DNA of 64,000 nt, taken from UHGV virus genome UHGV-1579991; one strand, written 5' to 3'. Origin of the DNA: a virus. This document shows, piece after piece, positions 4,779 through 53,643 of the stretch. Within the stretch, counting starts at the first letter, position 1. The number at the start of each line of letters is the position of its first letter. A program made the translations under genes and the position numbers. The notes under the pieces are model-generated. The model was not told where the DNA came from. It ran no database searches and was given only the letters and a program-made list of their open reading frames with translations.

Positions 4779-6770
4779 ATGTCTGAAGTTAAGCATCAAG
4801 TATATGACCCTGTAGCACAATTCAAATCTGCAGAAGAAAAGGAAGCTGCAAGAGTCGTGTGGTGTTCAGAAAGTGTGCGTCGTGCATATGCAGCAGTTGA
4901 CCAAGGCCTGCCATTACGGTCGAATCCCTGGTTCTTTGGCAATATTGCATTGCGTAAGCCAGGACTATTGTATAGATACTCTGACGTAGAGCTACGTGAA
5001 TGGCTTAGATGTGCTTATGATATACTGTACTTTGCCAACACATACGCTACACTCATGACACCTGCAGGTGTGCGAATGCATATTACGTTGCGACCATATC
5101 AGAAAAAAATGCTTCGTGCGTATCAAAAGCAAAAGTACATTATAAGTTTGTGTGGACGACAAATAGGCAAAACTACGACTGCTGCAATTTTCCTCGCTTG
5201 GGCTGTCATTTTCAATCGTGAGCTCAACATAGCAGTACTTGGCGACCGCTTGGCTACATCAAGTGAAAACCTGAACAAAACAAAAGACATCATAAACAAT
5301 CTGCCATTCTTTATGAAGCCTGGTGTGTTTGTTTGGAATGGTGGAATGGTCGCATTTGACAATGGCTGCAAAATTATCACAGGTACTGCTCAAAAGTCAT
5401 CACTTGTCGGTAAAACAATTCACATCTTGTATCTTGATGAGCTCGCAATTCCGCCTGCTCAGCAATCAAAGACTCTTGTAGACTATGCATTGCCCACAAT
5501 TGCATCATTGCCAACTGGCAAAGTTATCGTAACATCTACGCCATCTGGTGATAATGTGTTCAAGACTTTGTGGCTTGGTGCAATTAACAAAACAAATGGA
5601 TTCTTTCCAATTCAAGTAAACTGGTGGGACATTCCAGGTCGTGATGAAAAGTGGAAAGCTGAACAAATTGCAATTCTTGGTGAAGATGCTTTCAATGAGC
5701 AATACAACTGCGTGTTCTTGTCAGGTGCAACGTCAATTTTCAATTCAAGAGCAATTGATGATATTGCAAGACGACAACAAAAGTATGAATTTGTTGCTGA
5801 TGAGCGTCTTGAATCGCTGCTCAGATTTTTCATTGCTGATTCAGATGTTGGCACTGAACCTGAGCCGCATTCATTTATGACTTGGCGTGCAGATATTGAC
5901 CCAGCGACACTCAAAAATGAAACATGTATCATCAACATCGACATCGCTGAAGGCTTATCTGGCGACTTTTCTGTCATACATGTGCATCGTATAGTTGACA
6001 TTGCAAAAGATGCTGAACTTGAACTTGATGCAAGCAATCTGTATGATATGTTTGACGATGACAAAAAATCATTGTTTGCAAAAGCAGTTGAAATGCAACG
6101 TCAAATGTCGGCAACACAAGCTCAAGATGATGACGATGATGACGATGACGACTGGTTTGGCGCAGACGATGATGTTGCTCAAGGAGTCGATGCATATCAA
6201 GATTATGCGAATGCTGCAGTAGAAGAGATTGGCTTGTGGCGCTCAAATGTGACGTCAATTAAAGTCATGGCTCTGTATTTGCAGTTCTTAATGACATATG
6301 TGTTTGACGCAAACAAAACAAAGATTATCTATGAACGCAACAAATATGGTGGAGAGTTTCGTTCATATTGTTTGTCTGAACGTGCACGCAATATTGCAAT
6401 TGATGAAGAGAGCTTCGTAAGCTTCCAACGAACTCTTGGTTCAGAACAACTTGCACCAGGCTGTTCAATTACGCCTGGCACCAAACCAGTGTACGTAAGA
6501 CAGCTCAAAGACCTTATTGAAACTGGCAAGATTCTTGAAAACAATGCAGATACGCAAAGAGAGCTTACATACTTTGGCGGTGTCAAAGGCAAGAATGGTC
6601 ATGTGTCATATCAGGCATCACCAGGCTTCCATGATGACATTGCAATGACTCTTGTATCTCTTGCAGCATTTATGGACACTCGATGCAACGATTGGCTTGA
6701 ACTGCTTGATGTGTTCTACAATGGCAGCAGTCAAACAAGTTCTGATGATGACGATGATGACTGGATTTGA
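4779..6770 (+). CDS. Terminase large subunit (T4 gp17-like)
   Basis: Walker A CGRQIGKTT, Walker B ILYLDELA, overall resemblance to gp17 ATPase region; ATG at 4779; unusual poly-Asp tracts (DDDDDDDDDW and C-terminal DDDDDDWI). Confidence 0.85.
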   Translation: MSEVKHQVYDPVAQFKSAEEKEAARVVWCSESVRRAYAAVDQGLPLRSNPWFFGNIALRKPGLLYRYSDVELREWLRCAYDILYFANTYATLMTPAGVRMHITLRPYQKKMLRAYQKQKYIISLCGRQIGKTTTAAIFLAWAVIFNRELNIAVLGDRLATSSENLNKTKDIINNLPFFMKPGVFVWNGGMVAFDNGCKIITGTAQKSSLVGKTIHILYLDELAIPPAQQSKTLVDYALPTIASLPTGKVIVTSTPSGDNVFKTLWLGAINKTNGFFPIQVNWWDIPGRDEKWKAEQIAILGEDAFNEQYNCVFLSGATSIFNSRAIDDIARRQQKYEFVADERLESLLRFFIADSDVGTEPEPHSFMTWRADIDPATLKNETCIINIDIAEGLSGDFSVIHVHRIVDIAKDAELELDASNLYDMFDDDKKSLFAKAVEMQRQMSATQAQDDDDDDDDDWFGADDDVAQGVDAYQDYANAAVEEIGLWRSNVTSIKVMALYLQFLMTYVFDANKTKIIYERNKYGGEFRSYCLSERARNIAIDEESFVSFQRTLGSEQLAPGCSITPGTKPVYVRQLKDLIETGKILENNADTQRELTYFGGVKGKNGHVSYQASPGFHDDIAMTLVSLAAFMDTRCNDWLELLDVFYNGSSQTSSDDDDDDWI

Positions 6771-33207: not shown

Positions 33208-35198
33208 TCATCTGCAGCGTCACCATCGAAGCCCATGAGCACTTTGCGTACATGCGCATTGCCGCCGAGCCATGCATTGATTGCATCCCATGAGTCTTCT
33301 TTAGCGACTACTTGTTCGAGTACAGGTGCAGACATAATGTCTTCAAACTCTGTAGAAGTCAATGATGCAAGACCCTTCTTATGATTAACTTCCCAATCTT
33401 TGCTGCCATTGAATTTGTCTGCGACTTTATTGTAGTCATCATAGAAGTAGAACTTTCGTTCTTCACCAGTTTTGCGATTGTTGCAGATGATGATTGGCGT
33501 GACTACATTATACACAAGACCCATGTCAAACAACTCAGGCCAGAACTTGTAGAAGAACAGCTGCAGCAATGATGAAATGCTGTAGCCATCAACATCTGCA
33601 TCAGTCAAAATGCAAATCTTGCCATAGCGTAATTTGCGTGGGTCTGCTTTTTCATTGAATCGCAAACCAAGTGACTGCATCAAACCTGCAATTTCAGGCT
33701 TTTCTATGAGTTTCTTTGGATTGTCATAGTAGCAATTGCCAATTGACTTACCACGAATACAGTAGAAGCCTTGGGTCAATGCATTTCGATTGACTCGAAT
33801 ACCTTGTGATGCAGAATCACCTTCTACAATGAACAACATGCATTCATTACGATTTGTCTTTTGTGCAGCATCTACAAGCTTATTGACATGAAACTGCTTT
33901 GTCTTGACTTCAAGTTTCTTATTGAGCTCCTTGGCTTCTTTGGCTTTCTCTTTCTCTTCTTCAATCTGTTTCTTGATTTTGCAGTCCATCAAGATGCGGT
34001 CAAGAATTTCAGTTTTTGTCAAGTACTTCTTGAGCTTATCTGAAATGAGAATTGGGAAGCCGAACTTTTGCGTCTTTGTAGCCAATTTGTCTTTGACCTG
34101 CGCATCGAATTCAGGATTAGGAATTTTCCACATTGACAAGATTGACATGTGCTTGAACACGTCTTTCTTTGCGGGTTCAAATCCATATTTGTTTTTGATG
34201 TGGTCAATCAAAAAGTCTGCGCATACATTCGCGATGAAGTCCATATGCGTGCCATAGTCACATCGAATTGAATTGACTATTGCAAAGCTTTCAAAGAAGC
34301 CTGCTCTACTTGGGCCAATCTCGAAACTATAGTTCTCGTTTTCATCACCACGAAATTCTTTGGTGTGTTCCCACAAGTCTTTGTACTCCCAAAAGTGCTT
34401 GAACTTGAATTCATAGTTTTCGCCAGTAGCTTCATTGTGCCATTCAACTACAAGTGGATTGTTTACATCGCAGCCCATAACTGCGACTTCGATTGCTCGT
34501 GACAGCCACTTGTCTACAGTGTCATCTGGAATGTGGTCAAGCGGAGCTGCGTTAATCCACTCCCATCTGCCAAGGTCAAGATGAGCTTCGATGTATGTAA
34601 AATGTTCAGACTTACGGCATTTGCTGACTTTTGCCTCATCATGTCGCCCCATGTTGTCATACCAGCAAATTTCAAGTTTTTTGCCATCTTTTGCTGTAAT
34701 GACTTTGAATGACTTAGACATCACATTGACAAGTGACGCGCCAAGACCATTTGTGCCAGACAATGCGCCGCGGTCAGCAACAAAATTTGAACCAGACCTC
34801 AATGAGCCAAATACCATCTGCGGTATGTACTCATTGTACTCTGGATGCATCACTACAGGAATGCCACCGTTGTCCCATACTGCAAGCTTGCCTGTTTTTG
34901 GGTTGACTGTGACTGATATGCGATTGACGATGCTACTGTCATGTCGTTGTATGCTACGTTCATGTTCATCAAATGAGTTTGAAATTAACTCATTAAACAT
35001 AGTATTCAATGCAAGTGATTGATATGTTGTATAAACACGTCGAATTGGTCTTTCAGCGTCCTCATATGGACGATACAGCTCACATTCTTGTTCTGCAAGA
35101 AATTCAAGCGACCCTATGTACATACCAGGCTTCAGTAGACAATGTTCGCGCGTTGAAAGTTTTTTGAACTTTTCTGTCAGATTGTTTATGTCAGACAT
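33204..35198 (-). CDS. DNA topoisomerase II large subunit (GHKL ATPase + TOPRIM; GyrB-like, T4 gp39-like)
   Basis: Start at MSDINNLTEKF (ATG 35198-35196); LLKPGMYIGS, TOPRIM EGDSA in IVEGDSASQG, and a ParE/GyrB-like Gly-rich segment. Confidence 0.85.
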   Translation of the reverse strand: MSDINNLTEKFKKLSTREHCLLKPGMYIGSLEFLAEQECELYRPYEDAERPIRRVYTTYQSLALNTMFNELISNSFDEHERSIQRHDSSIVNRISVTVNPKTGKLAVWDNGGIPVVMHPEYNEYIPQMVFGSLRSGSNFVADRGALSGTNGLGASLVNVMSKSFKVITAKDGKKLEICWYDNMGRHDEAKVSKCRKSEHFTYIEAHLDLGRWEWINAAPLDHIPDDTVDKWLSRAIEVAVMGCDVNNPLVVEWHNEATGENYEFKFKHFWEYKDLWEHTKEFRGDENENYSFEIGPSRAGFFESFAIVNSIRCDYGTHMDFIANVCADFLIDHIKNKYGFEPAKKDVFKHMSILSMWKIPNPEFDAQVKDKLATKTQKFGFPILISDKLKKYLTKTEILDRILMDCKIKKQIEEEKEKAKEAKELNKKLEVKTKQFHVNKLVDAAQKTNRNECMLFIVEGDSASQGIRVNRNALTQGFYCIRGKSIGNCYYDNPKKLIEKPEIAGLMQSLGLRFNEKADPRKLRYGKICILTDADVDGYSISSLLQLFFYKFWPELFDMGLVYNVVTPIIICNNRKTGEERKFYFYDDYNKVADKFNGSKDWEVNHKKGLASLTSTEFEDIMSAPVLEQVVAKEDSWDAINAWLGGNAHVRKVLMGFDGDAADD

Positions 35199-35225
35199 GT
35201 CTGTAAATTGAGATGTTTGTATATG

Positions 35226-35259
35226 TATATTGTACAACAAGAATGCAAAACTTGCACTG
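35226..35259 (-). promoter_or_regulatory. Promoter-like conserved motif containing TTGTACAA
   Basis: Minus-strand CAGTGCAAGTTTTGCATTCTTGTTGTACAATATAC. Confidence 0.5.
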
Positions 35260-35385
35260 AAAATATACACATTTTCACATAGCTGCAAGCATAATGCCAA
35301 GCACTACTGCAAGACATATCAAACCTATGCCAAGAACAATAAAGTCCAGCATAGAATAAGTGTCATTAGACTGTTTCATAAGTAA

Positions 35386-36312
35386 TTATCGCAATTGATT
35401 CTTTGCAATGAATGCATTGATGTGCTCTGGCTTGCATACAGCACGATAGTAGAGTTCAAATACTCGTTTAGCAGATGGCAATTTGCATGCAGTCAAATCT
35501 TTATCTTGCATTACAACACCAGTAATGTACTTAATGTCATGCAGCTCAATGTCTGAACAATGATGCTTTGCTGCAAACTCAAATGCTTGCTTAACAATTT
35601 TTGAGCATTCTGCTGTAGTACATTGCTGAAATGCTGCACAAAACTCTGCATAAGTGCTGCAGTCATTTTGCAGATGTAATGCAACAGATGATTTCAACAT
35701 TGCTTCTGTTAAGTACTTTGGCAGCTTGCACAAAATTTTGACGTACTTGCACTTGTCATCTGTCACATGCACGTAGCCAGACACTGCAAGCATTCTAACA
35801 TATCGAACAAGTTCTCTATGCTGTAGTGCTGTGCGCAGTATGACATTGTTTTGCAGCAAAATCTCATTGTCAACTGTGCAGTTAAGTGGCAATGTGTTGT
35901 ATGCTACTTTAAGATACGATAGCTTCGTTAATTGTTGTAAGCCATCATAGCCAACAAAATCTGCTGGCACAATCAGTGGCAGACTGCAAACGACTTGTCG
36001 ATTATTTCTGTCAACAATTGTGATTGCTGGGTTTTGCAAGTCAAGCACAGATTTTGAACAAAACACTTGCATTGTGTCTTGAACTGTAACAAATCCGAAG
36101 TTCTTGCACAATTGCATATTGCATGTACGAGCTTCTGCTGCGCTAATTGTTGCAATGGGCAACTGTTTGTCGCTACACACATGCATCGGAGTTGGCCATA
36201 TTGGGTCAGCTCTCAATACAAGCACATGTTTGTTGCAGTCATATATTGCAGCAAAATCTGCAAGATTGCTGATGTATCTTAAAGTAGTGTTACAAATCCC
36301 ATTCATATGCAT
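35386..36312 (-). CDS. Hypothetical protein (start approximate)
   Basis: ORF 35386-36504; internal Met chosen to limit overlap with upstream gene. Confidence 0.4.
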   Translation of the reverse strand: MHMNGICNTTLRYISNLADFAAIYDCNKHVLVLRADPIWPTPMHVCSDKQLPIATISAAEARTCNMQLCKNFGFVTVQDTMQVFCSKSVLDLQNPAITIVDRNNRQVVCSLPLIVPADFVGYDGLQQLTKLSYLKVAYNTLPLNCTVDNEILLQNNVILRTALQHRELVRYVRMLAVSGYVHVTDDKCKYVKILCKLPKYLTEAMLKSSVALHLQNDCSTYAEFCAAFQQCTTAECSKIVKQAFEFAAKHHCSDIELHDIKYITGVVMQDKDLTACKLPSAKRVFELYYRAVCKPEHINAFIAKNQLR

Positions 36313-37123
36313 TGTCTTGTACAGGTCCGCTAATTTGAACATCGAGGCCAAAGCGCTCAAGATAGCCATCGCAGAAATCAAGCCCATATTTGTTGCACTG
36401 TCTGAATGCATACTGGAACTTATCCAAGATTGCCCATAGATAAGGCTTCGAGCCCTCGGTGGGATATCCACCCTTTCTGTAATGCCACCAGCGCATGATA
36501 TCATGAAACTCCCAATCTTCTGCTTCGCATTCTACTGTAAAGCAGTCATGATATTTTGTCATCTGAGGCCAGAGCTCAGTGTTGATGCGCTGACGAGTTG
36601 CTGCACAGTCATCAAGCAACTCAAGAAACTCTTCAGGCGCATCAATCATGGGCAGATTTGCTTCATTGACATCGATTTCTGCATCATTCGACAGCAGCTT
36701 TGTGATACGACCATTGTGCTCTGCAATGTCTTCATAGACTTTTTTGCGCGTAGCATCCATAGTCGCAGTCCACTTCGTGCCCTCTTCAATTTTCGGAAGT
36801 TGCTTGTCTTTGTTTTCATTCCATTCAGGTGACTGGTCGAATATTGCCTTGCGACGAATATCGACAAGCTCCAAAAAGAAGGGCTTCGTCAACATAACAG
36901 TATCACCCAGAATTTCTTTTGCTTGTTCAAAGCCCTCAATTTTGATTGAGTCTGCTGCAGCACAAATCTGCTCCTGAATTTTGTCTGCAGCTTCAAGAAT
37001 GATGCGAGCTTTTGTTTTGATGTCGTAAGATGCAGAATGTAAGCCAAGCTGCTCTGCAATTTCTACGGAATTTTGAAGACGAGCCTGCATGGCTTCTTCA
37101 TTGTTCTTCTTTCCTCGTGCCAT
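36290..37123 (-). CDS. Hypothetical protein, 277 aa
   Basis: ORF. Confidence 0.5.
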   Translation of the reverse strand: MARGKKNNEEAMQARLQNSVEIAEQLGLHSASYDIKTKARIILEAADKIQEQICAAADSIKIEGFEQAKEILGDTVMLTKPFFLELVDIRRKAIFDQSPEWNENKDKQLPKIEEGTKWTATMDATRKKVYEDIAEHNGRITKLLSNDAEIDVNEANLPMIDAPEEFLELLDDCAATRQRINTELWPQMTKYHDCFTVECEAEDWEFHDIMRWWHYRKGGYPTEGSKPYLWAILDKFQYAFRQCNKYGLDFCDGYLERFGLDVQISGPVQDNAYEWDL

Positions 37124-37138
37124 AATGTTATTGTTTTG

Positions 37139-37387
37139 CTATATGAGACTTGTTATGACTTCAAGCACATGTTCTTTTGAATAGCACTTATCAAACTTAT
37201 GCTTGAAGTCAATTAGTGACTCAAGCTTTGTTAAGTACCATTGATTGTCATACTTGAACCAGACTCGAGCATTTGCCGAACATATTGCATGCATTGCAGC
37301 ATTCTGGTCTTCTTCAGGATTACGCCACATAGACCCAAAGTGATATTGCAATGTAATGCCGCATTTATGAATTTCGTGCAATTTCAT
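37139..37387 (-). CDS. Hypothetical protein, 82 aa
   Basis: ORF. Confidence 0.35.
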   Translation of the reverse strand: MKLHEIHKCGITLQYHFGSMWRNPEEDQNAAMHAICSANARVWFKYDNQWYLTKLESLIDFKHKFDKCYSKEHVLEVITSLI

Positions 37388-37396
37388 GTGTACTTG

Positions 37397-37651
37397 CTAA
37401 AATGTTAACTGTAATGACTTGATATTGACGCATTCAATTTTTAACATGACAAGCTTATCATGTGCAGCCATTGCGTCATATTTGATGTTTGCAATTTCGA
37501 GCTTTTGTGCAATTTTGTATGCAGTGGCGCCATCAGTAGATATGCAGATGCAATTGCCAATGACAATATTTGCTGCATCTGTTATATTAACTTTGCATGC
37601 ATTATCATTGTTATCAATGACTTCTATGCATTTGATTGAGTTAAAGTCCAT
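37397..37651 (-). CDS. Hypothetical protein, 84 aa
   Basis: ORF preceded by promoter motif. Confidence 0.4.
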   Translation of the reverse strand: MDFNSIKCIEVIDNNDNACKVNITDAANIVIGNCICISTDGATAYKIAQKLEIANIKYDAMAAHDKLVMLKIECVNIKSLQLTF

Positions 37652-37680
37652 ATTGCAGAGGTTTAGTATATTTGACAGTA

Positions 37681-37725
37681 TATTATTTATAGATATATAA
37701 TACTACATACTTGCAGATTTTGCAC
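37681..37725 (-). promoter_or_regulatory. Promoter-like conserved motif
   Basis: Minus-strand AAGTGCAAAATCTGCAAGTATGTAGTATTATATATCTATAAATAATA. Confidence 0.55.
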
Positions 37726-37858
37726 TTAGTTGATAAATAATTTATAAACATTTTCACAAACTTTTAACAGCTCTTTCGCTTATGAAAACTACTCAACTCT
37801 GGTTTGAACGCCAGCAGTCAATCGCGGGGGGGCTCTTCGTGCTCCTGATTACATAGAT

Positions 37859-38551
37859 GTGCGGTTTACACTCGTAGATGATATGAGCATACCTTGTGCA
37901 TATATGCCAAACATATATGTGTTTGCTGATGGCAATGAGTATGCAATATCTCCAATAGGTTCACAATCACTTGATTATGACGGCTCATGTATTGTACGTA
38001 TTACCAAGTCAGACTGGATTGAAATGTTTGGCGCTGGTGTTACACAAGGCAGACTTAAATTTGGCTATGGCACAAATGAGCTTGAATTTTGTGAATTGAT
38101 AAGCGCTGCAACTGCTGAAGTCAAATTCGTTATTGGTTATGAACAAAGCCAGTCTGTCACTGCAACATTTAGTGATTTGCTGCATAATCCACTTGTCGCA
38201 ACAAACAACAATTCTGCACAAGCAACAATTACATATACATTTAGTCATGCGACATTTAGAACAGCAGCATTTAAGATTATCGGTAATGTGACATTATTAC
38301 CAGGCGGTGATGTAAGTAACACAGCTACAATTCTTGCGCCTAATTATAGTACAACAATTAAGTACACTACGTCATCAACGCCAAAACTATTTGAGCATTC
38401 AATGACATTTGAGCGTAACAATGAAATGCTTGAGTATGTTGGCACTGAAGTAGACAGACATGCGTATTGTCAAATGAGACGTAGAACTACGGGCTTAACT
38501 GTATATTGTCATGTGTATATTGATGATAGCATGCTTAATATGATGAATTGA
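37859..38551 (+). CDS. Hypothetical beta-rich protein on the plus strand; GTG start at 37859 or ATG at 37883
   Basis: Only plus-strand gene in a long minus-strand array; preceded by a G7 tract (37826-37832) and followed by a strong hairpin terminator. Confidence 0.45.
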   Translation: MRFTLVDDMSIPCAYMPNIYVFADGNEYAISPIGSQSLDYDGSCIVRITKSDWIEMFGAGVTQGRLKFGYGTNELEFCELISAATAEVKFVIGYEQSQSVTATFSDLLHNPLVATNNNSAQATITYTFSHATFRTAAFKIIGNVTLLPGGDVSNTATILAPNYSTTIKYTTSSTPKLFEHSMTFERNNEMLEYVGTEVDRHAYCQMRRRTTGLTVYCHVYIDDSMLNMMN

Positions 38552-38576
38552 TAGTTGTGTAACATTGCGCAAAAAG

Positions 38577-38604
38577 AAAGCCGAACTGAAATTCAGTTCG
38601 GCTT
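38577..38604. terminator. Bidirectional rho-independent terminator between convergent genes
   Basis: Stem aagccgaactga/tcagttcggctt with AAATT loop, flanked by A-run upstream and T-run downstream. Confidence 0.7.
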
Positions 38605-38629
38605 TCTTTTTGCATACGCTTATGCTATG

Positions 38630-41600
38630 TTAGAACAGAGCAATGATGTTGTCGACAAACATAAAGCATGCATGCAGCAATTCAGCTGTCGGCGTCATCT
38701 CATATGCTTTGCCATCATACATGAATCGCACAGTGACAATTGGTGATACTTCGTCTTTGAATGCAAGCACTGGAATGTCTACGCCTGCAGTCAATTGCAC
38801 TTCAACGTCCTTGTCAGCTGCTGCATCTTTAGCAATCACTGCGATATCTCGACAACGACCAGCAGCTACTGCATACCGAACATTTGTCAATGCTGCAGAC
38901 ATATCAACAAGAGCTTGCATAATTTGCTGTTGAGTAAATTGCTCGACTGACTTCTTTGCAGCCTTGACTGCTTCGATATCTTGCGTATTTGCAAGAATCA
39001 ATGCTACCACTGCAGGGTCAGAAGTAGTCCACCAACGGCCATCAATTGCAAGCCACAGTCGATTGCCATTGACGTCAATTGCATATGCATATTGAGTGTT
39101 TGGTGCCAATGTGACTTTTCGAGTGTTCTTTAAGAACTCTGCTGCATCAGGAGCTGCAACAATGTTCTTGACAAATGACGGCAGCATTTCAGCTTCAAAT
39201 GTTTGTGTAGCTTCAAAGACACCGCCACGTGCATCGTCATCAATTCTGCCTGCAAAGCGTTTGCAGATTTGAATGATTGTAGCCATGCCTACTGTTGGAA
39301 CGACTTGACGTTTCATTGCAGGCATTTGCAGAGGCATTGTATCTTGTGCAATGTACAATGATGCAACATCAACTGTGTCAAGTACTCGTACAATGTCAGC
39401 AGCGTCAACAATTACAAACCAGTCACCATCATGACAAACAATCAGTTGCTTGCTATCATTTGCGAATGTTAACAGCACTGCAACGTCATTTTTGATTGAT
39501 ATTGCAGGAATCCATGCTTGTTGCAGAGGTAAGTCAAGATTTGGTGTGCCGCATGGATAAAGCGCAGATGGCTGCATAATTGAGCGGCAATCAAAACCTA
39601 TTGAACTTACAAGCTGCAGAACTTCGCCACGAATGCAAGCATTACTTTGATTCTGTGTCATATCATATGCAAGCCAACTGCAAATTGCTTTGATTGATGA
39701 CACTGGAAATGCTATGCCAATTGTGCTGTATGCAATCTTGCCGTCTGCTGACAATGACTCATCAACTGCAATGCCAGCATCATTGAACAATGACATATCA
39801 ATTGAACAATGGAATTCGCCACCAGGCATTGGACCTGCAGCAATACCATAGCCAGGACCAAGTGACAGCCATTCTTTCATTGCATCTGAATTGTATGACG
39901 AGAACTTGTACAACACATATGACTTATGCGGGTCACTAACTGACTTGCGAATCTCCATCTTGGCGCCTGCTTTCTTTGCAATTGCTTTGATGTTGTCAGC
40001 ATGCTTCTTTGCCTCAGACTTGTCAAATTTGCCTTCATCAAGTTGAGCAATCTTGCCAAGCGCATAAGCAGTCCATGCAATTGACAATTGATTCAGTGCA
40101 CCAACTTCTGACCACGACTTTTCTGCAAACCATGAGCCAAGACCAGATTTGTCAAGAGTTGCTTTGCGTTCAGCTTTTGTTGCAGCATCCCACCACTTGC
40201 CTGTTGCAGGCAACACAATGTCTTTGATTTGCTCCTTGCGAAGCTCATTGACGCCAATTTTGCCCTCATGAATATGCGCATTTGCATGATATGCTCTAAG
40301 AGCAGCCAATGCAGCATCATATGAGTCATAGTCTTGCGGCCAGAATTCCCCATTCTTGCCAATGATGCCCCATACGCCCTTTGACTTTTCTTGGATGACA
40401 GAGTCTTTGTCACCAGCAGCTTCATTGACAAATGCAGTGTTAAGATATGCAATGACATGCTGAAGCTCTTTGTCGTCTGCAGACTCATTGACGTTCTTAG
40501 CGTAATCACCAAGAATTGATTCAACTTTGCCACGTAAATTGCTTGGCATATCATCAAGGTCAAGATTGCCATACTTCGTGACTTCTGGTTGAGACAATCC
40601 AAGCAATTTCAACACCTTATCACGGTACTTGTTTGCGAGCTTCTTCCAAATCCAGCGGAATGTTACAGCGCCAATCAAGAATTTGATGAGGCCCTCATCA
40701 AGTACATGTTGTTCACGCAAATATGCTGTAATGCATGAACGTTGACCATCAGTTAAGTCAACCCACATTTTATCAAGCAGTATTGAATCTGGGTTGCTTG
40801 CAATGCCAGCGCCACTGCGGTTGTACACATTCATTCTGTCAATTGCTGGTGTTGCGTCATTGTCCCACCAAGCTTGCGCATATGAACATCCAGCAGGATT
40901 TGAGATTGCCTCATCAATGTACATGACATTGAAAATTTCGCAAAGACGCTTGCGACATTCAGGTGACATAACTTGCCATTGTGTTGCAATTTTGTCTTCT
41001 GACCACTGCAACAGCATGTCTGCAAATTCTTTACCTGCACATTGCTCAACTGCGCCATGTTTCGAACGCCAATAATTGTCAGGCTCAATCTGCGCAATTG
41101 CATGAACAAATGAAGTCAGATTGTATGACGCAGATTCGCAAATGCAATGCTGTTCAATGTAGCTACGAACAGCAAGTGCAGTGTCTTCCGGCAAGTTGCT
41201 ATATGGTGACTCATAGATGTTTGCTTGCTGATTGAGCATATGTGGAGCGACTTCTGCAATGATTTGTTTGCGAACATTCAATGGCCATGCATTCCACGAA
41301 GATTCCACAGATTCATCAAGATGCATACCAATTGCATCCATAACTGCATCAGCATCTTTGCCCGACAGTTCGTCAAACAATTTGTCTACTACTGCAGCGT
41401 CATATCGCAAATTTGGCTGAGCTTTTGCAAGAGCATCCATCATTGCTTTGCGTTCTTGTTTTGACGCATTGTTCCATGTGCCAGCATACAATTCTGCTGT
41501 CGCGCTTTCACAAACAATATCTGCAGTAGCATATGCTTGCTTCATAATGTCCATGAAGATTGACTTCATTTTTGGATGCATCACATGATACTTTTCATTG

Positions 41601-41836
41601 TAAATGTCAAGTGTGCCATAGACATCTTTCAATGGTCTAATGCTTTCTGATGAGCCGAATGATGGCTTCAAAATTGAATTGCATACACGTTCAACGGTGC
41701 CACGCATAAACTTGACATCACTTCGCTTGTCACTGATAGACATAAATGCATCAATGACAGACTTGATGGTGTCATCTGCGGCTTCATTAACAAAGCCTAC
41801 TGGTCGACCGCCAAACTTGTTTGTTTGTGTTGTCAT
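38630..41836 (-). CDS. Large hypothetical protein, 1068 aa
   Basis: Uninterrupted ORF; no polymerase, helicase or nuclease motif recognised. Confidence 0.55.
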   Translation of the reverse strand: MTTQTNKFGGRPVGFVNEAADDTIKSVIDAFMSISDKRSDVKFMRGTVERVCNSILKPSFGSSESIRPLKDVYGTLDIYNEKYHVMHPKMKSIFMDIMKQAYATADIVCESATAELYAGTWNNASKQERKAMMDALAKAQPNLRYDAAVVDKLFDELSGKDADAVMDAIGMHLDESVESSWNAWPLNVRKQIIAEVAPHMLNQQANIYESPYSNLPEDTALAVRSYIEQHCICESASYNLTSFVHAIAQIEPDNYWRSKHGAVEQCAGKEFADMLLQWSEDKIATQWQVMSPECRKRLCEIFNVMYIDEAISNPAGCSYAQAWWDNDATPAIDRMNVYNRSGAGIASNPDSILLDKMWVDLTDGQRSCITAYLREQHVLDEGLIKFLIGAVTFRWIWKKLANKYRDKVLKLLGLSQPEVTKYGNLDLDDMPSNLRGKVESILGDYAKNVNESADDKELQHVIAYLNTAFVNEAAGDKDSVIQEKSKGVWGIIGKNGEFWPQDYDSYDAALAALRAYHANAHIHEGKIGVNELRKEQIKDIVLPATGKWWDAATKAERKATLDKSGLGSWFAEKSWSEVGALNQLSIAWTAYALGKIAQLDEGKFDKSEAKKHADNIKAIAKKAGAKMEIRKSVSDPHKSYVLYKFSSYNSDAMKEWLSLGPGYGIAAGPMPGGEFHCSIDMSLFNDAGIAVDESLSADGKIAYSTIGIAFPVSSIKAICSWLAYDMTQNQSNACIRGEVLQLVSSIGFDCRSIMQPSALYPCGTPNLDLPLQQAWIPAISIKNDVAVLLTFANDSKQLIVCHDGDWFVIVDAADIVRVLDTVDVASLYIAQDTMPLQMPAMKRQVVPTVGMATIIQICKRFAGRIDDDARGGVFEATQTFEAEMLPSFVKNIVAAPDAAEFLKNTRKVTLAPNTQYAYAIDVNGNRLWLAIDGRWWTTSDPAVVALILANTQDIEAVKAAKKSVEQFTQQQIMQALVDMSAALTNVRYAVAAGRCRDIAVIAKDAAADKDVEVQLTAGVDIPVLAFKDEVSPIVTVRFMYDGKAYEMTPTAELLHACFMFVDNIIALF

Positions 41837-41949: not shown

Positions 41950-44900
41950 TCAATTACATGCTGAATGTCCGCAGTTGGTGCATCGAACACAGCCGTCAAA
42001 CTTGACCATGTCACCACCGCATTCAGGACACTTTGCATACATCTTTGAGCCATCTTGAATGTGTAGTTTCAATGCGCGACCAATTGCTTTGCAGAATGTG
42101 CCAACAGATGCAAAGCTTTTTGCAGTTTGGTCGACAATTTCACCAAGGTCGATGCCATTGCGAAGCATCGTTGAGTACAGTCGAGTAATTGTTTGCTGCT
42201 CATCTGAACCAAGACGTTCTGAGATATTGTCATAGTGTTGCAAGAATGACAAATTATCACCAAGCTTGTAGTGCTTCTTATCAGTCTTTGTGATTGTCGT
42301 TTGTTCAATGCCTTGCAACTTGTCAAATTCGTCTTTGTCAAGTTCAAATGCAAAGATTTCATAGGGTCGACCATCATCACAACCTACAAGAATACACCAC
42401 TTACGCTTATACACTGATACACAATACACTGCAGCAGGCAATACAGGTTTTCGTTTTGAGCGATGACCAGACTGCAAGACATGCGACTTATCCTTAGACT
42501 GCTTATCATCTTTTACGAGAACACCTGCACGTGAGCCATCTCGATAAATTGTGCAACCCTTGCAGCCAGATTTCCATGCAGTCAGATAAATTTCACGAAC
42601 AAGCTCTTTTGTTGCAGAGTTTGGAATATTGACTGTTACAGAAATTGATGAGTCAATGTACTTTTGCAACGCGCCTTGCAGTTTAACCTTGCCAATCCAG
42701 TCAACATCTTCAGTAGTTGCCTTATAGTATGGTGATTGAACAAGCAATTCATCAATGACTGCTTGCGAAGCATTTGACAACCAAGCTTTGATACGAGACA
42801 TTTCTGCTTCTGACCATTCAATGCCAGTATCTTTGACAAGGGTGAATTTGTCATCACCAAGCTGCACTCGTTTGCAAATCCACTGCATCAATGGGTAGTG
42901 AACTACAGCGTATTCAATGAACTTGTCACCAGTAGTCTCATCAATGAAGTTGATGTCTGCTTCATTATCAACTGCAGTAGGCTTTCGACGACGTTTGTGC
43001 AGTGGCATAAAAACAGGTTCAATGCCAGAAGTTGTCTGAGTCATCAAAGCTGTGGTGCCAGTTGGCGCAATTGTTGTTGTGTTGATGTTTCGACGACCAA
43101 ATTGTTGATAAGTTGTGATGTGCTCATCATCAATCAGTTCAGATAACATACGCTGAATGAACTTTGACTGCACATCTGTGTCATAGTCGAATATTGCAAA
43201 TGAGCCACGAATCTCTGCCAAGTCAATTGACGCTTCATAAGTCGCCTTTACAAGCCATTGTTGCATAGTGACTGCGAAGTCAATTGACTCTTGTGAACCA
43301 TAGCGCAAGCCAAGCATTGCCATTGCATCGCCAAGTGCAAGAAAGCCCATGCCATATCGACGAGTATTTGTCAATTTGTCATAGACTTTATGCCACAAGT
43401 CAAGCTCAGTTTTCTTAATGTCAAATGATTCTTTGTCTGATTCAACCTTTGCAATGATTCGTTGAACTGCTTCAATTTCAAGCTGCACAAGGTCATCCAT
43501 GATGACTGCACAGTCATATGTATCTTTGTAGAATGCTTCAAAGTCAAATGATGCATCAGCAGTCCAAGGATTAAGCACATATGCAGTCAAATTGCGATGT
43601 GATAAAATGCAGCTTGCATATGCTGCAAGAGGCTGTTCACCGCACTGCCTGTTGTTTACAAATACTTGCATATGTCTGTCATTTGTATCATTGACAGCGT
43701 CAAATGACCCTACAAAAAAGTTGTGATAATCATCTACAGTGCCATTATACACATCTTCTACACCATCAAGTTCAACAGTGTGTACCCTATGATTGTAGTA
43801 ATCTGCAAACTGCTTAAACTTTCTGTATGACGCATGAATAGCAGCGTCAACATTGTTAGATTTGCATTCATTTGCAAATTCTTCATAATTTGGTCGTTTG
43901 CCAAGTTTTTGCTTTGCTGCAGTATATACAAGCACTTGTTCTTTAGACCATTTTGCTTGCTGAGCTGCGTGGCCGCATTCGGCAGAACAATATGCAACTT
44001 CTCTATAAAACCAGTGCGCCCAAAATTCAGAGCCGCAATGTTCGCAAATACGTTTAACATACACTTGTTTGTCAACAAATTTAGTGTCATAGCCCATATT
44101 GCGAACTTTAATTGCTGTTGCTATGCATCTGCTATCAATGCCAACTAAATCAGGATATTTAACATTAGCGCGCGTTGCACAATGACTTAAAAATGCATCA
44201 ATAGAGCCAAATGTTTCTACTAATTTATTGTACCTGTAGCCAGACCATGCAACAGTATTATTGCCTGGCGCATAGCGCATATAGTATTCTAATTCTTTGC
44301 GACTAAGGCCTCTTCCAACTTTTGCAGTGCATTGCGTAACATAGTCTACAATTGATTGCACAGTTGTATCAATATCATATCTGCCATTACGTTCACCAGA
44401 AGTAGATGCACTCATTTTAGCAGAATACTGTGCAAAACGTTCTGCATTTGCTTTAATTTTGTATATTGGATTGTTAGTGCCTCTACGTTCAAGTGCATGT
44501 AATGCATCATGCTCTTTTTTGCTTAGTACTTGTAAGTTATTTGGGTCATTGTTTAATGAATTGCCATCGATATGATGCACTACTGTGTGTGTAGCATCAA
44601 ACTGTTCAGCATGACAGTATTCTGCTATTAAACGATGCTCAAACTTATATACACCATTATTCAACACTGCATAATATGGTGCAGATTTGCTATTTGTTTG
44701 ATAGCTAAGCACTTCATCAAATGAACATTGTTGTCTTGCAATAATTGCTAAGCTATCACCATGCTGTAATTGTCGTGCTTCTTTGTATGTGCCATCTGTT
44801 AACTTAAACTTGTGATTACCTGTGCAACGAATAACATCACCAGAATCAAGTGTAACTTTGTATATTTGCACATTTGAGCCTGTTTTGCGTGGATGCCGCA

Positions 44901-45936
44901 TTTTGCGTACAACTACATTATTGTTGTCATCATAGCAATACACATTAACATCATCGCCAATATCTGCAAGTTCACGTATTGTCATTGTTTGTCTGCCATC
45001 AGCAAGCATAACTTTAGTGCTGCCAACAATGCATGGATTTGTTGAGCGCTCTTCATACATTTTACCGTATGCTTTCGAGTTCGACTCTTCCATAATGCGG
45101 TCCCAAAAGAACACGCCGGGTTCTGCAGATGCCCATACATTGTCAACAATTTTGTCAAATAATGCTTTTGCATCTGATGTCTTATGCAGCTCTTGGCCAT
45201 CAGAGCCACGCCAAATATGTTCAAACTGCTGTTCTGCAAGCACTGCACGCATAAATGCATCAGTAAGCTTGATGGAAATGTTTGCACCTGTGATTTTTGT
45301 CAAGTCTTTTTTTGCGTCAATGAACTTATCTGCATCAGGATGCTCAATTGACAATGACAACATCAATGCGCCACGCCTGCCATTTTGTGCAACTTCTTTT
45401 GTCGATGTTGAAAAGCGTTCCATAAATGACACGACACCAGACGTCGTAATAGCACTGTTATGTACTTCTACGCCTTCTGGGCGAATATGCGACAAATCAT
45501 GGCCAACACCACCACGACGTTTCATCAACTGAACTTGCTCTTCATCTGTTTTGAAGATGCCGCCATATGAATCTGCATCATTGCCTATTACATAGCAATT
45601 TGACATTGATGTGTAACCGCCAAGACCGATACCAGCCATTGGAGAACCACCAAGTACAAATCGCTTAAATGGCTCAAGCAAATATGCAAGTCGCTCTTTT
45701 GACAATACACGTTTGCCTGTCTGTTCTTCAAATTGTGATTCTATACGGTCAAATTCATTGACCCAGCGCTCATGCATATCAGACAATGAGTGTTCATACA
45801 AATTGTCTTTGTCATGATGCAAGTATTTTGACATGCATATGTCAGCAGCCATTGAGTCGCCCGTAAATTCATGCGTCAGTGTAGTGTGCACTTCAGCATA
45901 TTCAGGCGACCCAATTTGAATGGGACGTTTTGTCAT
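41950..45936 (-). CDS. nrdJ: Ribonucleotide reductase, class II (adenosylcobalamin-dependent, NrdJ-like), interrupted in-frame by an intein
   Basis: Start at MTKRP (ATG 45936-45934); extein motifs STNP...CGEQPL (reconstitutes NPCGE), TIYRDGSR, C-terminal CPECGG...CTNCG zinc ribbon; total ORF 1328 aa is far longer than a typical RNR. Confidence 0.75.
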   Translation of the reverse strand: MTKRPIQIGSPEYAEVHTTLTHEFTGDSMAADICMSKYLHHDKDNLYEHSLSDMHERWVNEFDRIESQFEEQTGKRVLSKERLAYLLEPFKRFVLGGSPMAGIGLGGYTSMSNCYVIGNDADSYGGIFKTDEEQVQLMKRRGGVGHDLSHIRPEGVEVHNSAITTSGVVSFMERFSTSTKEVAQNGRRGALMLSLSIEHPDADKFIDAKKDLTKITGANISIKLTDAFMRAVLAEQQFEHIWRGSDGQELHKTSDAKALFDKIVDNVWASAEPGVFFWDRIMEESNSKAYGKMYEERSTNPCIVGSTKVMLADGRQTMTIRELADIGDDVNVYCYDDNNNVVVRKMRHPRKTGSNVQIYKVTLDSGDVIRCTGNHKFKLTDGTYKEARQLQHGDSLAIIARQQCSFDEVLSYQTNSKSAPYYAVLNNGVYKFEHRLIAEYCHAEQFDATHTVVHHIDGNSLNNDPNNLQVLSKKEHDALHALERRGTNNPIYKIKANAERFAQYSAKMSASTSGERNGRYDIDTTVQSIVDYVTQCTAKVGRGLSRKELEYYMRYAPGNNTVAWSGYRYNKLVETFGSIDAFLSHCATRANVKYPDLVGIDSRCIATAIKVRNMGYDTKFVDKQVYVKRICEHCGSEFWAHWFYREVAYCSAECGHAAQQAKWSKEQVLVYTAAKQKLGKRPNYEEFANECKSNNVDAAIHASYRKFKQFADYYNHRVHTVELDGVEDVYNGTVDDYHNFFVGSFDAVNDTNDRHMQVFVNNRQCGEQPLAAYASCILSHRNLTAYVLNPWTADASFDFEAFYKDTYDCAVIMDDLVQLEIEAVQRIIAKVESDKESFDIKKTELDLWHKVYDKLTNTRRYGMGFLALGDAMAMLGLRYGSQESIDFAVTMQQWLVKATYEASIDLAEIRGSFAIFDYDTDVQSKFIQRMLSELIDDEHITTYQQFGRRNINTTTIAPTGTTALMTQTTSGIEPVFMPLHKRRRKPTAVDNEADINFIDETTGDKFIEYAVVHYPLMQWICKRVQLGDDKFTLVKDTGIEWSEAEMSRIKAWLSNASQAVIDELLVQSPYYKATTEDVDWIGKVKLQGALQKYIDSSISVTVNIPNSATKELVREIYLTAWKSGCKGCTIYRDGSRAGVLVKDDKQSKDKSHVLQSGHRSKRKPVLPAAVYCVSVYKRKWCILVGCDDGRPYEIFAFELDKDEFDKLQGIEQTTITKTDKKHYKLGDNLSFLQHYDNISERLGSDEQQTITRLYSTMLRNGIDLGEIVDQTAKSFASVGTFCKAIGRALKLHIQDGSKMYAKCPECGGDMVKFDGCVRCTNCGHSACN
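43645..45033 (-). mobile_element. Intein (about 463 aa) with Hint blocks and an HNH endonuclease domain, apparently ending in Gln
   Basis: Begins at Cys after STNP (CIVGSTKVMLADGRQTMTIRELADIGDD, block A); block B GNHKFKLTDG; HNH motif VVHHIDGNSLNNDPNNLQVLSKKEHDALH; zinc-finger-like CEHCGSEF...CSAECGH; block F VYNGTVDDYHNFFVG; ends ...VFVNNRQ immediately before CGEQ. Confidence 0.65.
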
Positions 45937-45973
45937 TGTAACAGTGCATTTAAGTGTTTTAACAGTTTTATGT

Positions 45974-46007
45974 ATAAATTGTACAACAATGGGCAAAATT
46001 TTGCATC
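45974..46007 (-). promoter_or_regulatory. Promoter-like conserved motif containing TTGTACAA upstream of RNR
   Basis: Minus-strand GATGCAAAATTTTGCCCATTGTTGTACAATTTATAC. Confidence 0.5.
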
Positions 46008-46383: not shown

Positions 46384-46845
46384 TTATTGTGCTTTTGCTT
46401 GTGCAGTGTAATAAGTGATTGCATCAATGTAAGGTAGTTCTTTAGACATTAGCCAATCAATGCCAAATACTGTATCTTGGCGAAATCTTCGTTGTGCAAT
46501 CATTTGAACTTCGATTGGCATATCTACGTCCTTGCCAAATCTGATTGTATTTGCAAGTTCTGTGATTGCATATCTGAGAATTTTATCGGTACTCATTGTT
46601 AAGGTGCTTTCCGGCAATTGCCAATAACGTTCTTGGAATGCTCGATTTGCTGAGTAAGTCCAAAGTTCAAGTCTTGCATTTCTGCAATCATATGAAACAA
46701 TCAGACTTAATCCTTTTGTCCAGCAATGTGCTATCTTAATGATTGGCTTGTCATCATTGATAGATGACATTGCTTGCAGTTTTTCGAAATCTTTAACATA
46801 TCTGTTATCATTCGAAAGCTGTTCCATTATTTCACCGTAAGTCAT
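46384..46845 (-). CDS. Hypothetical protein (start at MTYGEIMEQ)
   Basis: ATG 46845-46843 downstream of promoter motif 46866-46910. Confidence 0.45.
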   Translation of the reverse strand: MTYGEIMEQLSNDNRYVKDFEKLQAMSSINDDKPIIKIAHCWTKGLSLIVSYDCRNARLELWTYSANRAFQERYWQLPESTLTMSTDKILRYAITELANTIRFGKDVDMPIEVQMIAQRRFRQDTVFGIDWLMSKELPYIDAITYYTAQAKAQ

Positions 46846-46865
46846 TGTAGTAGAGGTTAAAATAT

Positions 46866-52749: not shown

Positions 52750-53622
52750 TCAAGCTTGACTACTTTTGTTGATTACGAGATACTTGTATCGTTCTTTGAT
52801 TGTGATGTTCTTTGATTTTGCCGCCTCGATTTCTTTGCGTTCCTTGGAGGAATAGTTGAACTTAATGTAGTCGGAGAACAATTCGGGCTTATCTGCTACT
52901 TCATTGTTCTTGACTTCTTTTACAAGAGTTTGCTGAAACTCATTGATTGTAGTGAAACCAAGGAATGACTGGAACTTGTTAAGCGGAAACAGCTTATCTG
53001 TGTTGTCCTCGAATGTCGGGAATTCGTCGGAATACGTAATTTCGATTTGGTCTACGAAATATCTAAGTTTTTCCCAAGGTTCCTTGCCAATGAGGAGAAT
53101 GTTCTGATGGTCAAGTTTTTCCTCGAACATTTCCAGGAGACATTCGTATGATTTTACGAGACGAACTCCAGGATATGTAATTGATGCAATTGAACGAGGT
53201 TTGTGAGTCGTCTTGACTTCTTTATTGTATGTTTCCTCGTCGATGCAATAGATGTATCGCTTGACCTTGTCGTATTCTTTCGGAAGATAGTTGTTGTCAA
53301 GGAATTGCTTGTCAACTACAATGAAACTGAAAGGATAGAGTTCATTGAATCGTTGACGAAGCTGTTCTGTTGCAAGGAAGAAATGCGAGCCATCTTTTGC
53401 TGCAAATTCCATATTTGAATTGCATCCTGCATATGCAATGTATCTGTTTCGCTTCCATTTGAGGAATCGACTTACCAGGTTCTTTTCGAAGATGTCCTTG
53501 TATTTGAAGTAGGTGTCCCAGTACTCCTTAACAATTCCATCTTGCATTTTTCTTGACAATTTTGAATTGTCTACCGGCCTATCAGTAAAAACTGATGGTT
53601 TGTTTGCGTTGTATAATCCCAT
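52750..53622 (-). CDS. Hypothetical Lys/Glu-rich protein with codon usage unlike neighbouring genes; candidate transferase of the sugar module (function unassigned)
   Basis: 290-aa ORF; visibly different codon choice (frequent GAG, AAG, TTC, AGG-containing context) compared with the GCA/CAA-rich flanking genes. Confidence 0.5.
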   Translation of the reverse strand: MGLYNANKPSVFTDRPVDNSKLSRKMQDGIVKEYWDTYFKYKDIFEKNLVSRFLKWKRNRYIAYAGCNSNMEFAAKDGSHFFLATEQLRQRFNELYPFSFIVVDKQFLDNNYLPKEYDKVKRYIYCIDEETYNKEVKTTHKPRSIASITYPGVRLVKSYECLLEMFEEKLDHQNILLIGKEPWEKLRYFVDQIEITYSDEFPTFEDNTDKLFPLNKFQSFLGFTTINEFQQTLVKEVKNNEVADKPELFSDYIKFNYSSKERKEIEAAKSKNITIKERYKYLVINKSSQA

Positions 53623-53643
53623 TGTAGTAGAGGTTTGTTAATT

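Follow-up and report, generated by a model that had tools for sequence, protein, structure and literature searches.

Adaptation of bacteria to their hosts characteristically involves phase variation through simple sequence repeats, and in bacterial contingency genes such as Neisseria opa (CTCTT repeats) and pilC (poly-G) the repeat lies in the leader-coding region. Among phages, to our knowledge, it has been documented essentially for Campylobacter phages only. Homopolymeric tracts near 5′ ends are recognised as switches in prokaryotes (review, PMC2831843), and in the Campylobacter (Fletchervirus) phages hypermutable polyG tracts lead to phase-variable expression (Sorensen 2021, Cell Rep 35:109214, as cited in PMC10579305 and PMC8696038). 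Here we analyse a run of seven G (G7) in a 64,000-nucleotide stretch (the window) of the UHGV virus genome UHGV-1579991, which represents an uncultured human-gut phage of ~180 kb. The run sits at the junction between a short, repeated 5′ start cassette and a longer open reading frame (ORF), which we call the cargo, and it likely acts as the switch of a contingency locus in this phage. Public assemblies contain natural alleles of all three kinds, ON, OFF and alternative-phase. An initial annotation of the window had suggested a slipped-strand or frameshift switch at this run, and the relatives support the idea, since they carry G6, G7 and G8 forms.

As far as the Campylobacter system is described in the two citing articles, the locus shares with it poly-G inside phage genes, changes in tract length and, on our reading, phase-variable expression and diversity within the phage population. 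It differs in belonging to a ~176–181 kb gut phage of another host group and lineage, with a Gp23-type capsid and no use of Shine-Dalgarno (SD) sites. Its tract is also shorter (6–8 nt) and is part of a repeated 5′ cassette of unrelated cargo genes, at the leader/cargo junction. The opa family offers a second parallel, namely a shared 5′ leader-peptide region with a slippage-prone repeat, whose copies switch independently and are expressed in combinations, as we propose for the phage. In contrast to opa, the present system is viral, its cargos are unrelated whereas Opa proteins are paralogues, and the peptide they have in common is not a Sec signal peptide. What is new is the architecture and not the principle: in a gut phage that is widespread, a single poly-G-gated start cassette serves several genes that are unrelated and swappable.

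The G tract and its reading frames

The unbroken run of seven G occupies codons 15–17 of the frame that begins at ATG 37782, a 24-codon ORF (MKTTQLWFERQQSIAGGLFVLLIT). Relative to this ATG, the long ORF on the plus strand (GTG 37859 to 38551 as listed) is in frame −1/+2, and no stop interrupts its frame back to 37808. The positions given in the initial annotation (G7 at 37826–37832, ATG 37782, TAG 37854–37856, ORF end 38551) are all correct. Its prediction that gain of one G would fuse the short ORF with the 230-aa ORF also holds: in silico, the addition yields a single uninterrupted ORF of 256 aa, and a natural G8 allele exists in contig L014. The elements involved are as follows.

37826–37832, plus strand: hypervariable poly-G tract, the proposed switch, identified by a tract-length census and tract-only differences in identical DNA
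37782–37784, plus strand: cassette start ATG, the only ATG able to serve the cargo ORF, in frame with it solely at G8 (or G5)
37804–37806, plus strand: TTG, candidate start in the cargo frame at G6; a putative weak start that would give MNASSQSRG-ALR...
37854–37856, plus strand: TAG ending the out-of-frame 24-codon product in the G7 phase, from reading the frames
37832–38551, plus strand: cargo ORF of type A, 239 codons from ALRAPDYIDVRF... to the stop, from frame analysis
37883–37885, plus strand: internal ATG, Met18 of the cargo frame, the start chosen by gene callers in G6/G7 genomes (proteins P0001–3)

The tract is a genuine feature and not a chance run. It is the sole G or C run of six or more within the window, and because GG is strongly depleted there (G follows G with a probability of 0.081, while its overall frequency is 0.193), an order-1 model expects only ~0.003 runs of at least seven G per 64 kb; a naive model of independent, identically distributed bases expects 0.5. 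CC is strongly depleted as well (probability of C after C 0.13; base frequencies 0.19 for G and 0.21 for C), and the window has no C run of five or more. Restriction-site avoidance or codon bias may underlie the depletion of both dinucleotides. The genome had initially been called AT-rich, which is right in direction and overstated in degree: with a GC content of ~40%, it is only moderately so.

A 5′ cassette repeated before unrelated cargo genes

The sequence that carries the tract occurs several times per genome. A 19-mer from the leader is found at three sites in both of two IMG/VR genomes of ~175 kb, and the number of cassette copies per genome is three or four. Each copy comprises an invariant core of ~70 nt, or ~110 nt when a partly conserved upstream block is included. 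The core consists of CTYTTTCGCTT, ATG AAA ACT ACT CAA CTC TGG TTT GAA CGC CAG CAG TCA ATC GC, the G tract and CTCTTCGTG; across its ~70 positions, only 2–3 substitutions are found outside the tract. Immediately after position 37841, 9 nt past the tract, the cargo sequences diverge completely.

37771–37841, plus strand: cassette core, with pyrimidine tract CTCTTTCGCTT, ATG, 14 codons plus GC, G tract and CTCTTCGTG; near-identical in 25 copies
37730–37770, plus strand: upstream block (TTGATAAATAATTTATAAACATTTTCACAAAC...), with variant forms in all copies, from a 13-copy alignment

The upstream block probably holds a promoter-proximal or leader element; its A-type form also precedes a copy of type D. 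Altogether the cassette heads four or five different cargo genes of ~216–242 codons each.

Type A: the gene in the window
Type A′: an allelic replacement of A at the same locus (L007 4204–4955, genome IMGVR_UViG_3300045988_149023)
Type B: in the helicase/single-stranded DNA-binding protein region
Type C: a cassette-headed gene convergent with type D
Type D: L018 2222–3092, minus strand, also in L019, L020 and L022, with a slightly diverged cassette

When read from the cassette ATG, types A, A′, B and C have the peptide MKTTQLWFERQQSIAGG-ALR in common, and type D has it with two changes. The out-of-frame tails read after the tract vary among cargo types, and for this reason a function for them is unlikely.

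Several copies show further peculiarities. The cassette of type D has Q12H and one additional GCG codon in frame. The type D cargo, a paralogue of the one of type C (CLPWI motif), is split into 90 codons from tract to stop, followed by a 164-aa ORF in another frame. There is no homopolymer at the split point, which is either the mark of a pseudogene or a second recoding site. In the A′ copy of L007 the tract reads GGGTGGG, an interruption expected to fix this copy in the 7-nt, out-of-frame phase. In L012, upstream DNA of the type B locus is joined to a type C cargo via a 112-nt identical cassette overlap (junction at ~2470–2581 in cassette orientation). We did not accept this as proof of cassette-mediated recombination, since a SPAdes contig of ~5× coverage with a 112-nt identical overlap permits an assembly chimera.

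Among described elements, the closest in layout are the PeSL of T4-type phages, mobile regulatory cassettes that are non-coding units of a sigma-70-like promoter and a terminator stem-loop (PMC2839356, PMC4122927). The likeness lies in short conserved cassettes repeated beside ORFan genes, in the replacement of A by A′ with the cassette kept, and in a strong terminator hairpin that bounds the unit. Unlike a PeSL, the present cassette includes a start codon, 16–17 codons and a tract of hypervariable length, no stem-loop inside its core is significant (z −1.1 to −1.5), and the promoter consensus and the terminator of the unit sit outside the core. Being apparently coding in part, the cassette falls outside the PeSL definition.

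Tract length differs between otherwise identical DNA

We read tract lengths directly from the 25 unique cassette copies, all of which are assembly consensus sequences.

G6: 6 copies
G7: 15 copies
G8: 3 copies
GGGTGGG: 1 copy

G7 is in the majority for each cargo type. A uniform G7 in deep read data was named in the initial annotation as a result that would count against a switch; at the level of assemblies no such uniformity is seen. Across them the tract varies in length, and it alone differs within three pairs or groups whose DNA is otherwise identical. Contig L014 (ENA ERZ27260843, 181,037 bp), an independent assembly, aligns over 6,771 nt to window positions 34782–41551 without a mismatch, and the single gap is the tract itself (G8 vs G7). 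At type C, the G7 copies of L018–20 and the G6 copy of L022 show 0 mismatches in 1,576 nt. L018 (G7) and L019 (G6) differ at type D, and the two genomes are identical over 2.9 kb around type C. G8 was also found in L015 and, at type C, in L016.

These lengths translate directly into reading frames. At G8 the cargo is in frame with the cassette ATG, at G7 it has no start in frame, and at G6 it is in frame with TTG 37804. Proteins called from the assemblies agree with this logic: P0012 of L014 equals the predicted 256-aa fusion residue for residue, as does P0013 (256 aa), and in type C the fusion is P0027 (259 aa), with a G8 tract. In the type C cluster, three called lengths were found, namely 217 aa (internal ATG), 251 aa (TTG, G6 phase) and 259 aa (ATG fusion); the TTG start was used by the gene caller for P0005, P0015, P0017 and P0026 (251 aa). 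Called length is nevertheless an imperfect proxy for phase, as L022 has G6 yet was called at 217 aa.

Homopolymers in repeated elements invite sequencing and assembly errors, and the length differences might be such errors over a uniform tract. Some contigs do have only 3–5× coverage (L002, L013), the cassette is a ~110-nt multi-copy repeat at which contigs break (L002, L003 and L022 begin there), and such a repeat can produce chimeric joins, as possibly in L012. However, each of the lengths G6, G7 and G8 turns up in many short-read assemblies of independent origin (with MEGAHIT- and SPAdes-style contig names), in which consensus errors at runs of 6–8 nt are generally rare. Variants also lie deep inside contigs of 175–181 kb (L001, L009, L014), the 251-aa form of the G6 phase is represented by four distinct sequences on 9 contigs, and the out-of-frame architecture is kept in all four paralogues. 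An origin of the variation in error alone is therefore, in our view, extremely unlikely.

Translation of the cargo very probably begins upstream of the internal ATG

In all copies, the long ORF reaches the tract without a canonical start codon near the tract. From the tract to the first in-frame ATG, the DNA shows the substitution pattern of coding sequence, with variable sites distributed 9/2/20 over codon positions 1/2/3 and with 19 synonymous-only against 10 non-synonymous codons, and this signature upstream of the internal ATG is present in all three cargo types. Type B lacks a Met before residue 80 of its 216 residues in two of the three genomes, and type C contains no ATG, GTG or TTG before residue 26. 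The listed start GTG 37859 is not conserved (GTA in L001). Comparison of A with A′ shows that ALRAP..IDVR is kept in the protein although the DNA has diverged. Finally, low-confidence AlphaFold2 (AF2) models of cargos A and C place the first strand of the best-predicted N-terminal beta-sandwich upstream of the internal ATG. Because the upstream stretch evolves as coding, and given the missing starts and the predicted position of the beta-strand, ATG 37883 is very probably not the true N-terminus.

These observations bear on a reading in which the 24-codon ORF would be a regulatory upstream ORF (uORF) in a shared 5′ leader, the cargo would start at ATG 37883, and the tract would tune the end of the uORF or the RNA structure. 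Such a start is the one that gene callers chose for P0001–3, and in G7 the uORF stop TAG 37854 adjoins ATG/GTG codons. The two substitutions seen in the ATG frame of the cassette, L6F and S13L, are both non-synonymous, and an 11-bp helix between the pyrimidine tract of the 5′ untranslated region and GCGGGGGGGCU is predicted in both cassette variants. With a z of only −1.1 to −1.5, we treat the predicted helix as no more than a lead. Against an internal start stand the coding signature 5′ of it in all three cargo types, the absence of Met from 79 conserved residues of type B (2/3 genomes) and of a canonical start from 25 conserved residues of type C, the predicted first beta-strand, which would drop out, and the natural G8 alleles, which encode the full fusion. 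We thus regard a regulatory uORF as very improbable.

Two further candidates were rejected. One was that the G run acts as an SD site for a conserved GTG at 37839; this codon does not lie in the cargo frame, and the phage makes no use of SD sites (1/43 genes). Bypassing in the style of T4 gene 60 was discarded because no matching landing codon was found.

A probable phase-variable start cassette

In its sequence, the locus displays three features of a simple-sequence contingency locus: a 5′ repeat within a reading frame, polymorphic repeat length among otherwise identical genomes, and length changes that move the ORF in and out of frame with its start codon. In the mechanism that we favour, the cassette would supply the leader, the only usable ATG, the 16–17 codons and the poly-G at the cargo junction, and slipped-strand mispairing during phage DNA replication would alter the length of the tract. 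G8 (or G5) would be the ON state, with the cargo in the ATG frame and a 256-aa product that bears the shared N-terminal peptide. G7 would be OFF or at most leaky, as its cargo frame has no start codon, and G6, which puts the cargo in frame with the cassette TTG, may allow weak expression with a different N-terminus. Since at least four unrelated cargo genes per genome share the cassette and their tracts would vary independently, a population would be a mixture of expression combinations. Switching within a lineage would be frequent and reversible, with a putative role in bet-hedging.

Several points weigh against this mechanism. The commonest state, G7 (15/25, plus the 7-nt GGGTGGG), has no start in frame. 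This would not be expected were the DNA-level ON state the sole route to expression, and it leaves room for slippage at the RNA level or on the ribosome. The share of G8 is inflated, since the three G8 copies were found through protein length, and the 259-aa form occurs on 1 of ~77 contigs among the listed type C cluster members. Compared with classical contingency tracts, G6–G8 is short, and switching may accordingly occur at a low rate. Every length was read from an assembly consensus, and several contigs have 3–5× coverage or start at the cassette (L002, L003, L022).

If slippage beyond the DNA level were the whole explanation, G7 itself would be the functional state: programmed −1 frameshifting on G_GGG_GGG, or RNA polymerase slippage (+1 G), would make the fusion protein a constant, small share of the output, with G6 and G8 as mutational noise. 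The heptamer lies in the exact X_XXY_YYZ phase of the ATG frame in G7, and the product of a −1 shift would equal the G8 product; with GG depleted in the genome, moreover, GGG is likely to be little used as a codon, and this would make pausing more probable. The G7 majority in every cargo type (15/25), the retention of 7 nt in the interrupted variant, and purifying selection on the cargo ORFs despite most genomes being nominally OFF fit this account too. However, no downstream stimulatory structure is shared or stands out (fold z ~0 for types A, B and C), and sequences diverge 9 nt past the tract. Site length and frame relation (−1, +1 or 0) both vary among relatives, unlike known programmed sites: the heptamer is out of phase in G6 copies, which would need a +1 shift, G8 copies need none, and GGGTGGG disrupts the slippery heptamer. 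As for transcriptional slippage, seven G are generally considered short for efficiency. On balance, a functional G7 of this kind seems unlikely to us, although frameshifting or transcriptional slippage may also act alongside a DNA-level switch and give leaky G7 expression.

A phase-variable start cassette would have practical consequences. Cassette-headed genes would be systematically mis-annotated, with truncated N-termini or the look of pseudogenes, and gut phage populations would be genetically heterogeneous at defined switch points. The cassette could also serve as a sequence handle for finding phage contingency genes in metagenomic reads.

Cargo proteins and the shared N-terminal peptide

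The type A cargo, which the initial annotation considered a possible host-interaction protein, is beta-rich and acidic, with 5 Cys. Searches of cargos A, A′, B and C against Pfam and PHROGs gave nothing above threshold, the sole match being a sub-threshold CorA-like beta-sandwich in A′, and an exhaustive profile search of type A against 1.84 billion representatives recovered its own small family only. Pairwise comparison of the cargo bodies A, A′, B and C revealed no significant similarity. Structure prediction of the window gene had been proposed in the initial annotation; an AF2 model was obtained, with a predicted local distance difference test (pLDDT) score of 42 for cargo A that is too poor for fold assignment, as is the 47 for cargo C. 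A Foldseek search with the cargo C model returned generic Ig-like matches only (template modelling score ≤ 0.28).

Unrelated proteins with a common N-terminal peptide recall the internal proteins of T4, which carry the capsid targeting sequence (CTS) MKTYQEFIAE (PMC8442874, PMC3012670). In both cases diverse small proteins have only a short N-terminal peptide in common, the capsid here is of the T4 type (Gp23), and the peptide starts M-K-T-x-Q-x-[FW]-[IF] (MKTTQLWFE). The match is short, however, starts with 'MKT' are common, and the T4 CTS genes lack a frameshift-prone tract. The CTS ends in a cleavage motif of the prohead protease, (L/I)-x-E; looked for in the shared peptide, this motif is absent (the peptide reads L-W-F-E-R). 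By analogy, the shared 17–20-aa peptide could be a virion- or capsid-targeting tag, with the poly-G switches loading at least four unrelated cargos stochastically and in combinations, a proposal that we rate as rather improbable. If it were true, the system would be a natural cargo-swapping platform, the cargo could be ejected anti-defence or surface-decoration proteins, and a virion proteome that is phase-variable by means of a swappable cassette would be a form of bet-hedging against host defences.

Surroundings of the unit

The gene in the window forms a self-contained plus-strand unit within a minus-strand replication module. It had initially been described as the only small gene on the plus strand, and from ~7 to 64 kb it is the only plus-strand gene of all; this does not extend to the whole window, as the large terminase gene (4779–6770) is also on the plus strand. 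Two elements flank the unit.

37672–37701, plus strand: candidate promoter, sigma-70-type consensus TTGACA-18-TATAAT with a 12/12 match, partly conserved in relatives
38569–38613, no strand assigned: perfect 21-bp hairpin with A and T runs on its flanks (−35.7 kcal/mol, z = −7.9, 0/200 shuffles fold as well)

The relatives infect Bacteroidota, where sigma-70 consensus promoters are not the norm, and the phage genes lack SD sites. From its sequence, the hairpin is likely a bidirectional terminator between the cargo gene and a convergent gene for a 1068-aa protein; a simple terminator scan missed it. Rfam searches gave no match on the cassette, and the weak, spurious microRNA/leader matches all fell on the hairpin. 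The 1068-aa protein gene (38630–41836, minus strand), which adjoins the cargo gene, is kept in all relatives. It has no Pfam or PHROG family, and its sole match is a sub-threshold one to the Cas9 alpha-helical lobe (16 bits).

A 16-mer, AACCTCTACTACAATG, is identical at the starts of two minus-strand genes (46843–46858 and 53620–53635; chance expectation 0.08), and similar ACCTCT..ATG strings lie at other gene starts, including that of the divergent gene at 37651. These strings may represent a phage-specific translation-initiation or promoter element.

Phage genome, relatives and host

The large phage to which the window belongs has genes for a large terminase, for the two subunits of topoisomerase II, for an NAD ligase, for a ribonucleotide reductase (RNR) bearing an intein and for a Gp23-family capsid protein (43.2 bits, cutoff 24.4). 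When the 527-aa capsid-like ORF was looked up as an exact sequence, no record matched; the protein had presumably been called with another start. For the prohead protease of a T4-type head, there is a precomputed 'weak' Peptidase_S77 match on a 1316-aa protein, the relevant part of which lies outside the stretch analysed. Searches of the locus, the cassette and the protein by megablast, blastn and tblastn against 50,697 phage records gave no match, and a scan of GTDB genomes found no cassette copies. Related contigs of 175–181 kb come from gut metagenomes, and one type C allele is indexed in 53 blocks of the collection.

By terminase, the nearest cultured relatives are phages of Chryseobacterium and Tenacibaculum together with the Sphingomonas phage PAU, at 32–49% identity. 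An SD-like motif precedes 1 of 43 genes, which fits the Bacteroidota-type host that we infer. The gene directly upstream of the type C unit (L016 2239–2853; L018 636–1250) has a faint match to BACON, a carbohydrate-binding domain linked to Bacteroidetes, which hints at a neighbourhood for host-surface interaction and at a Bacteroidota host. The RNR large subunit (41950–45996, minus strand; 1348 aa) contains an intein with an HNH endonuclease domain; its orthologue in L001 has 1073 aa and a weak intein match only, so intein content varies among close relatives.

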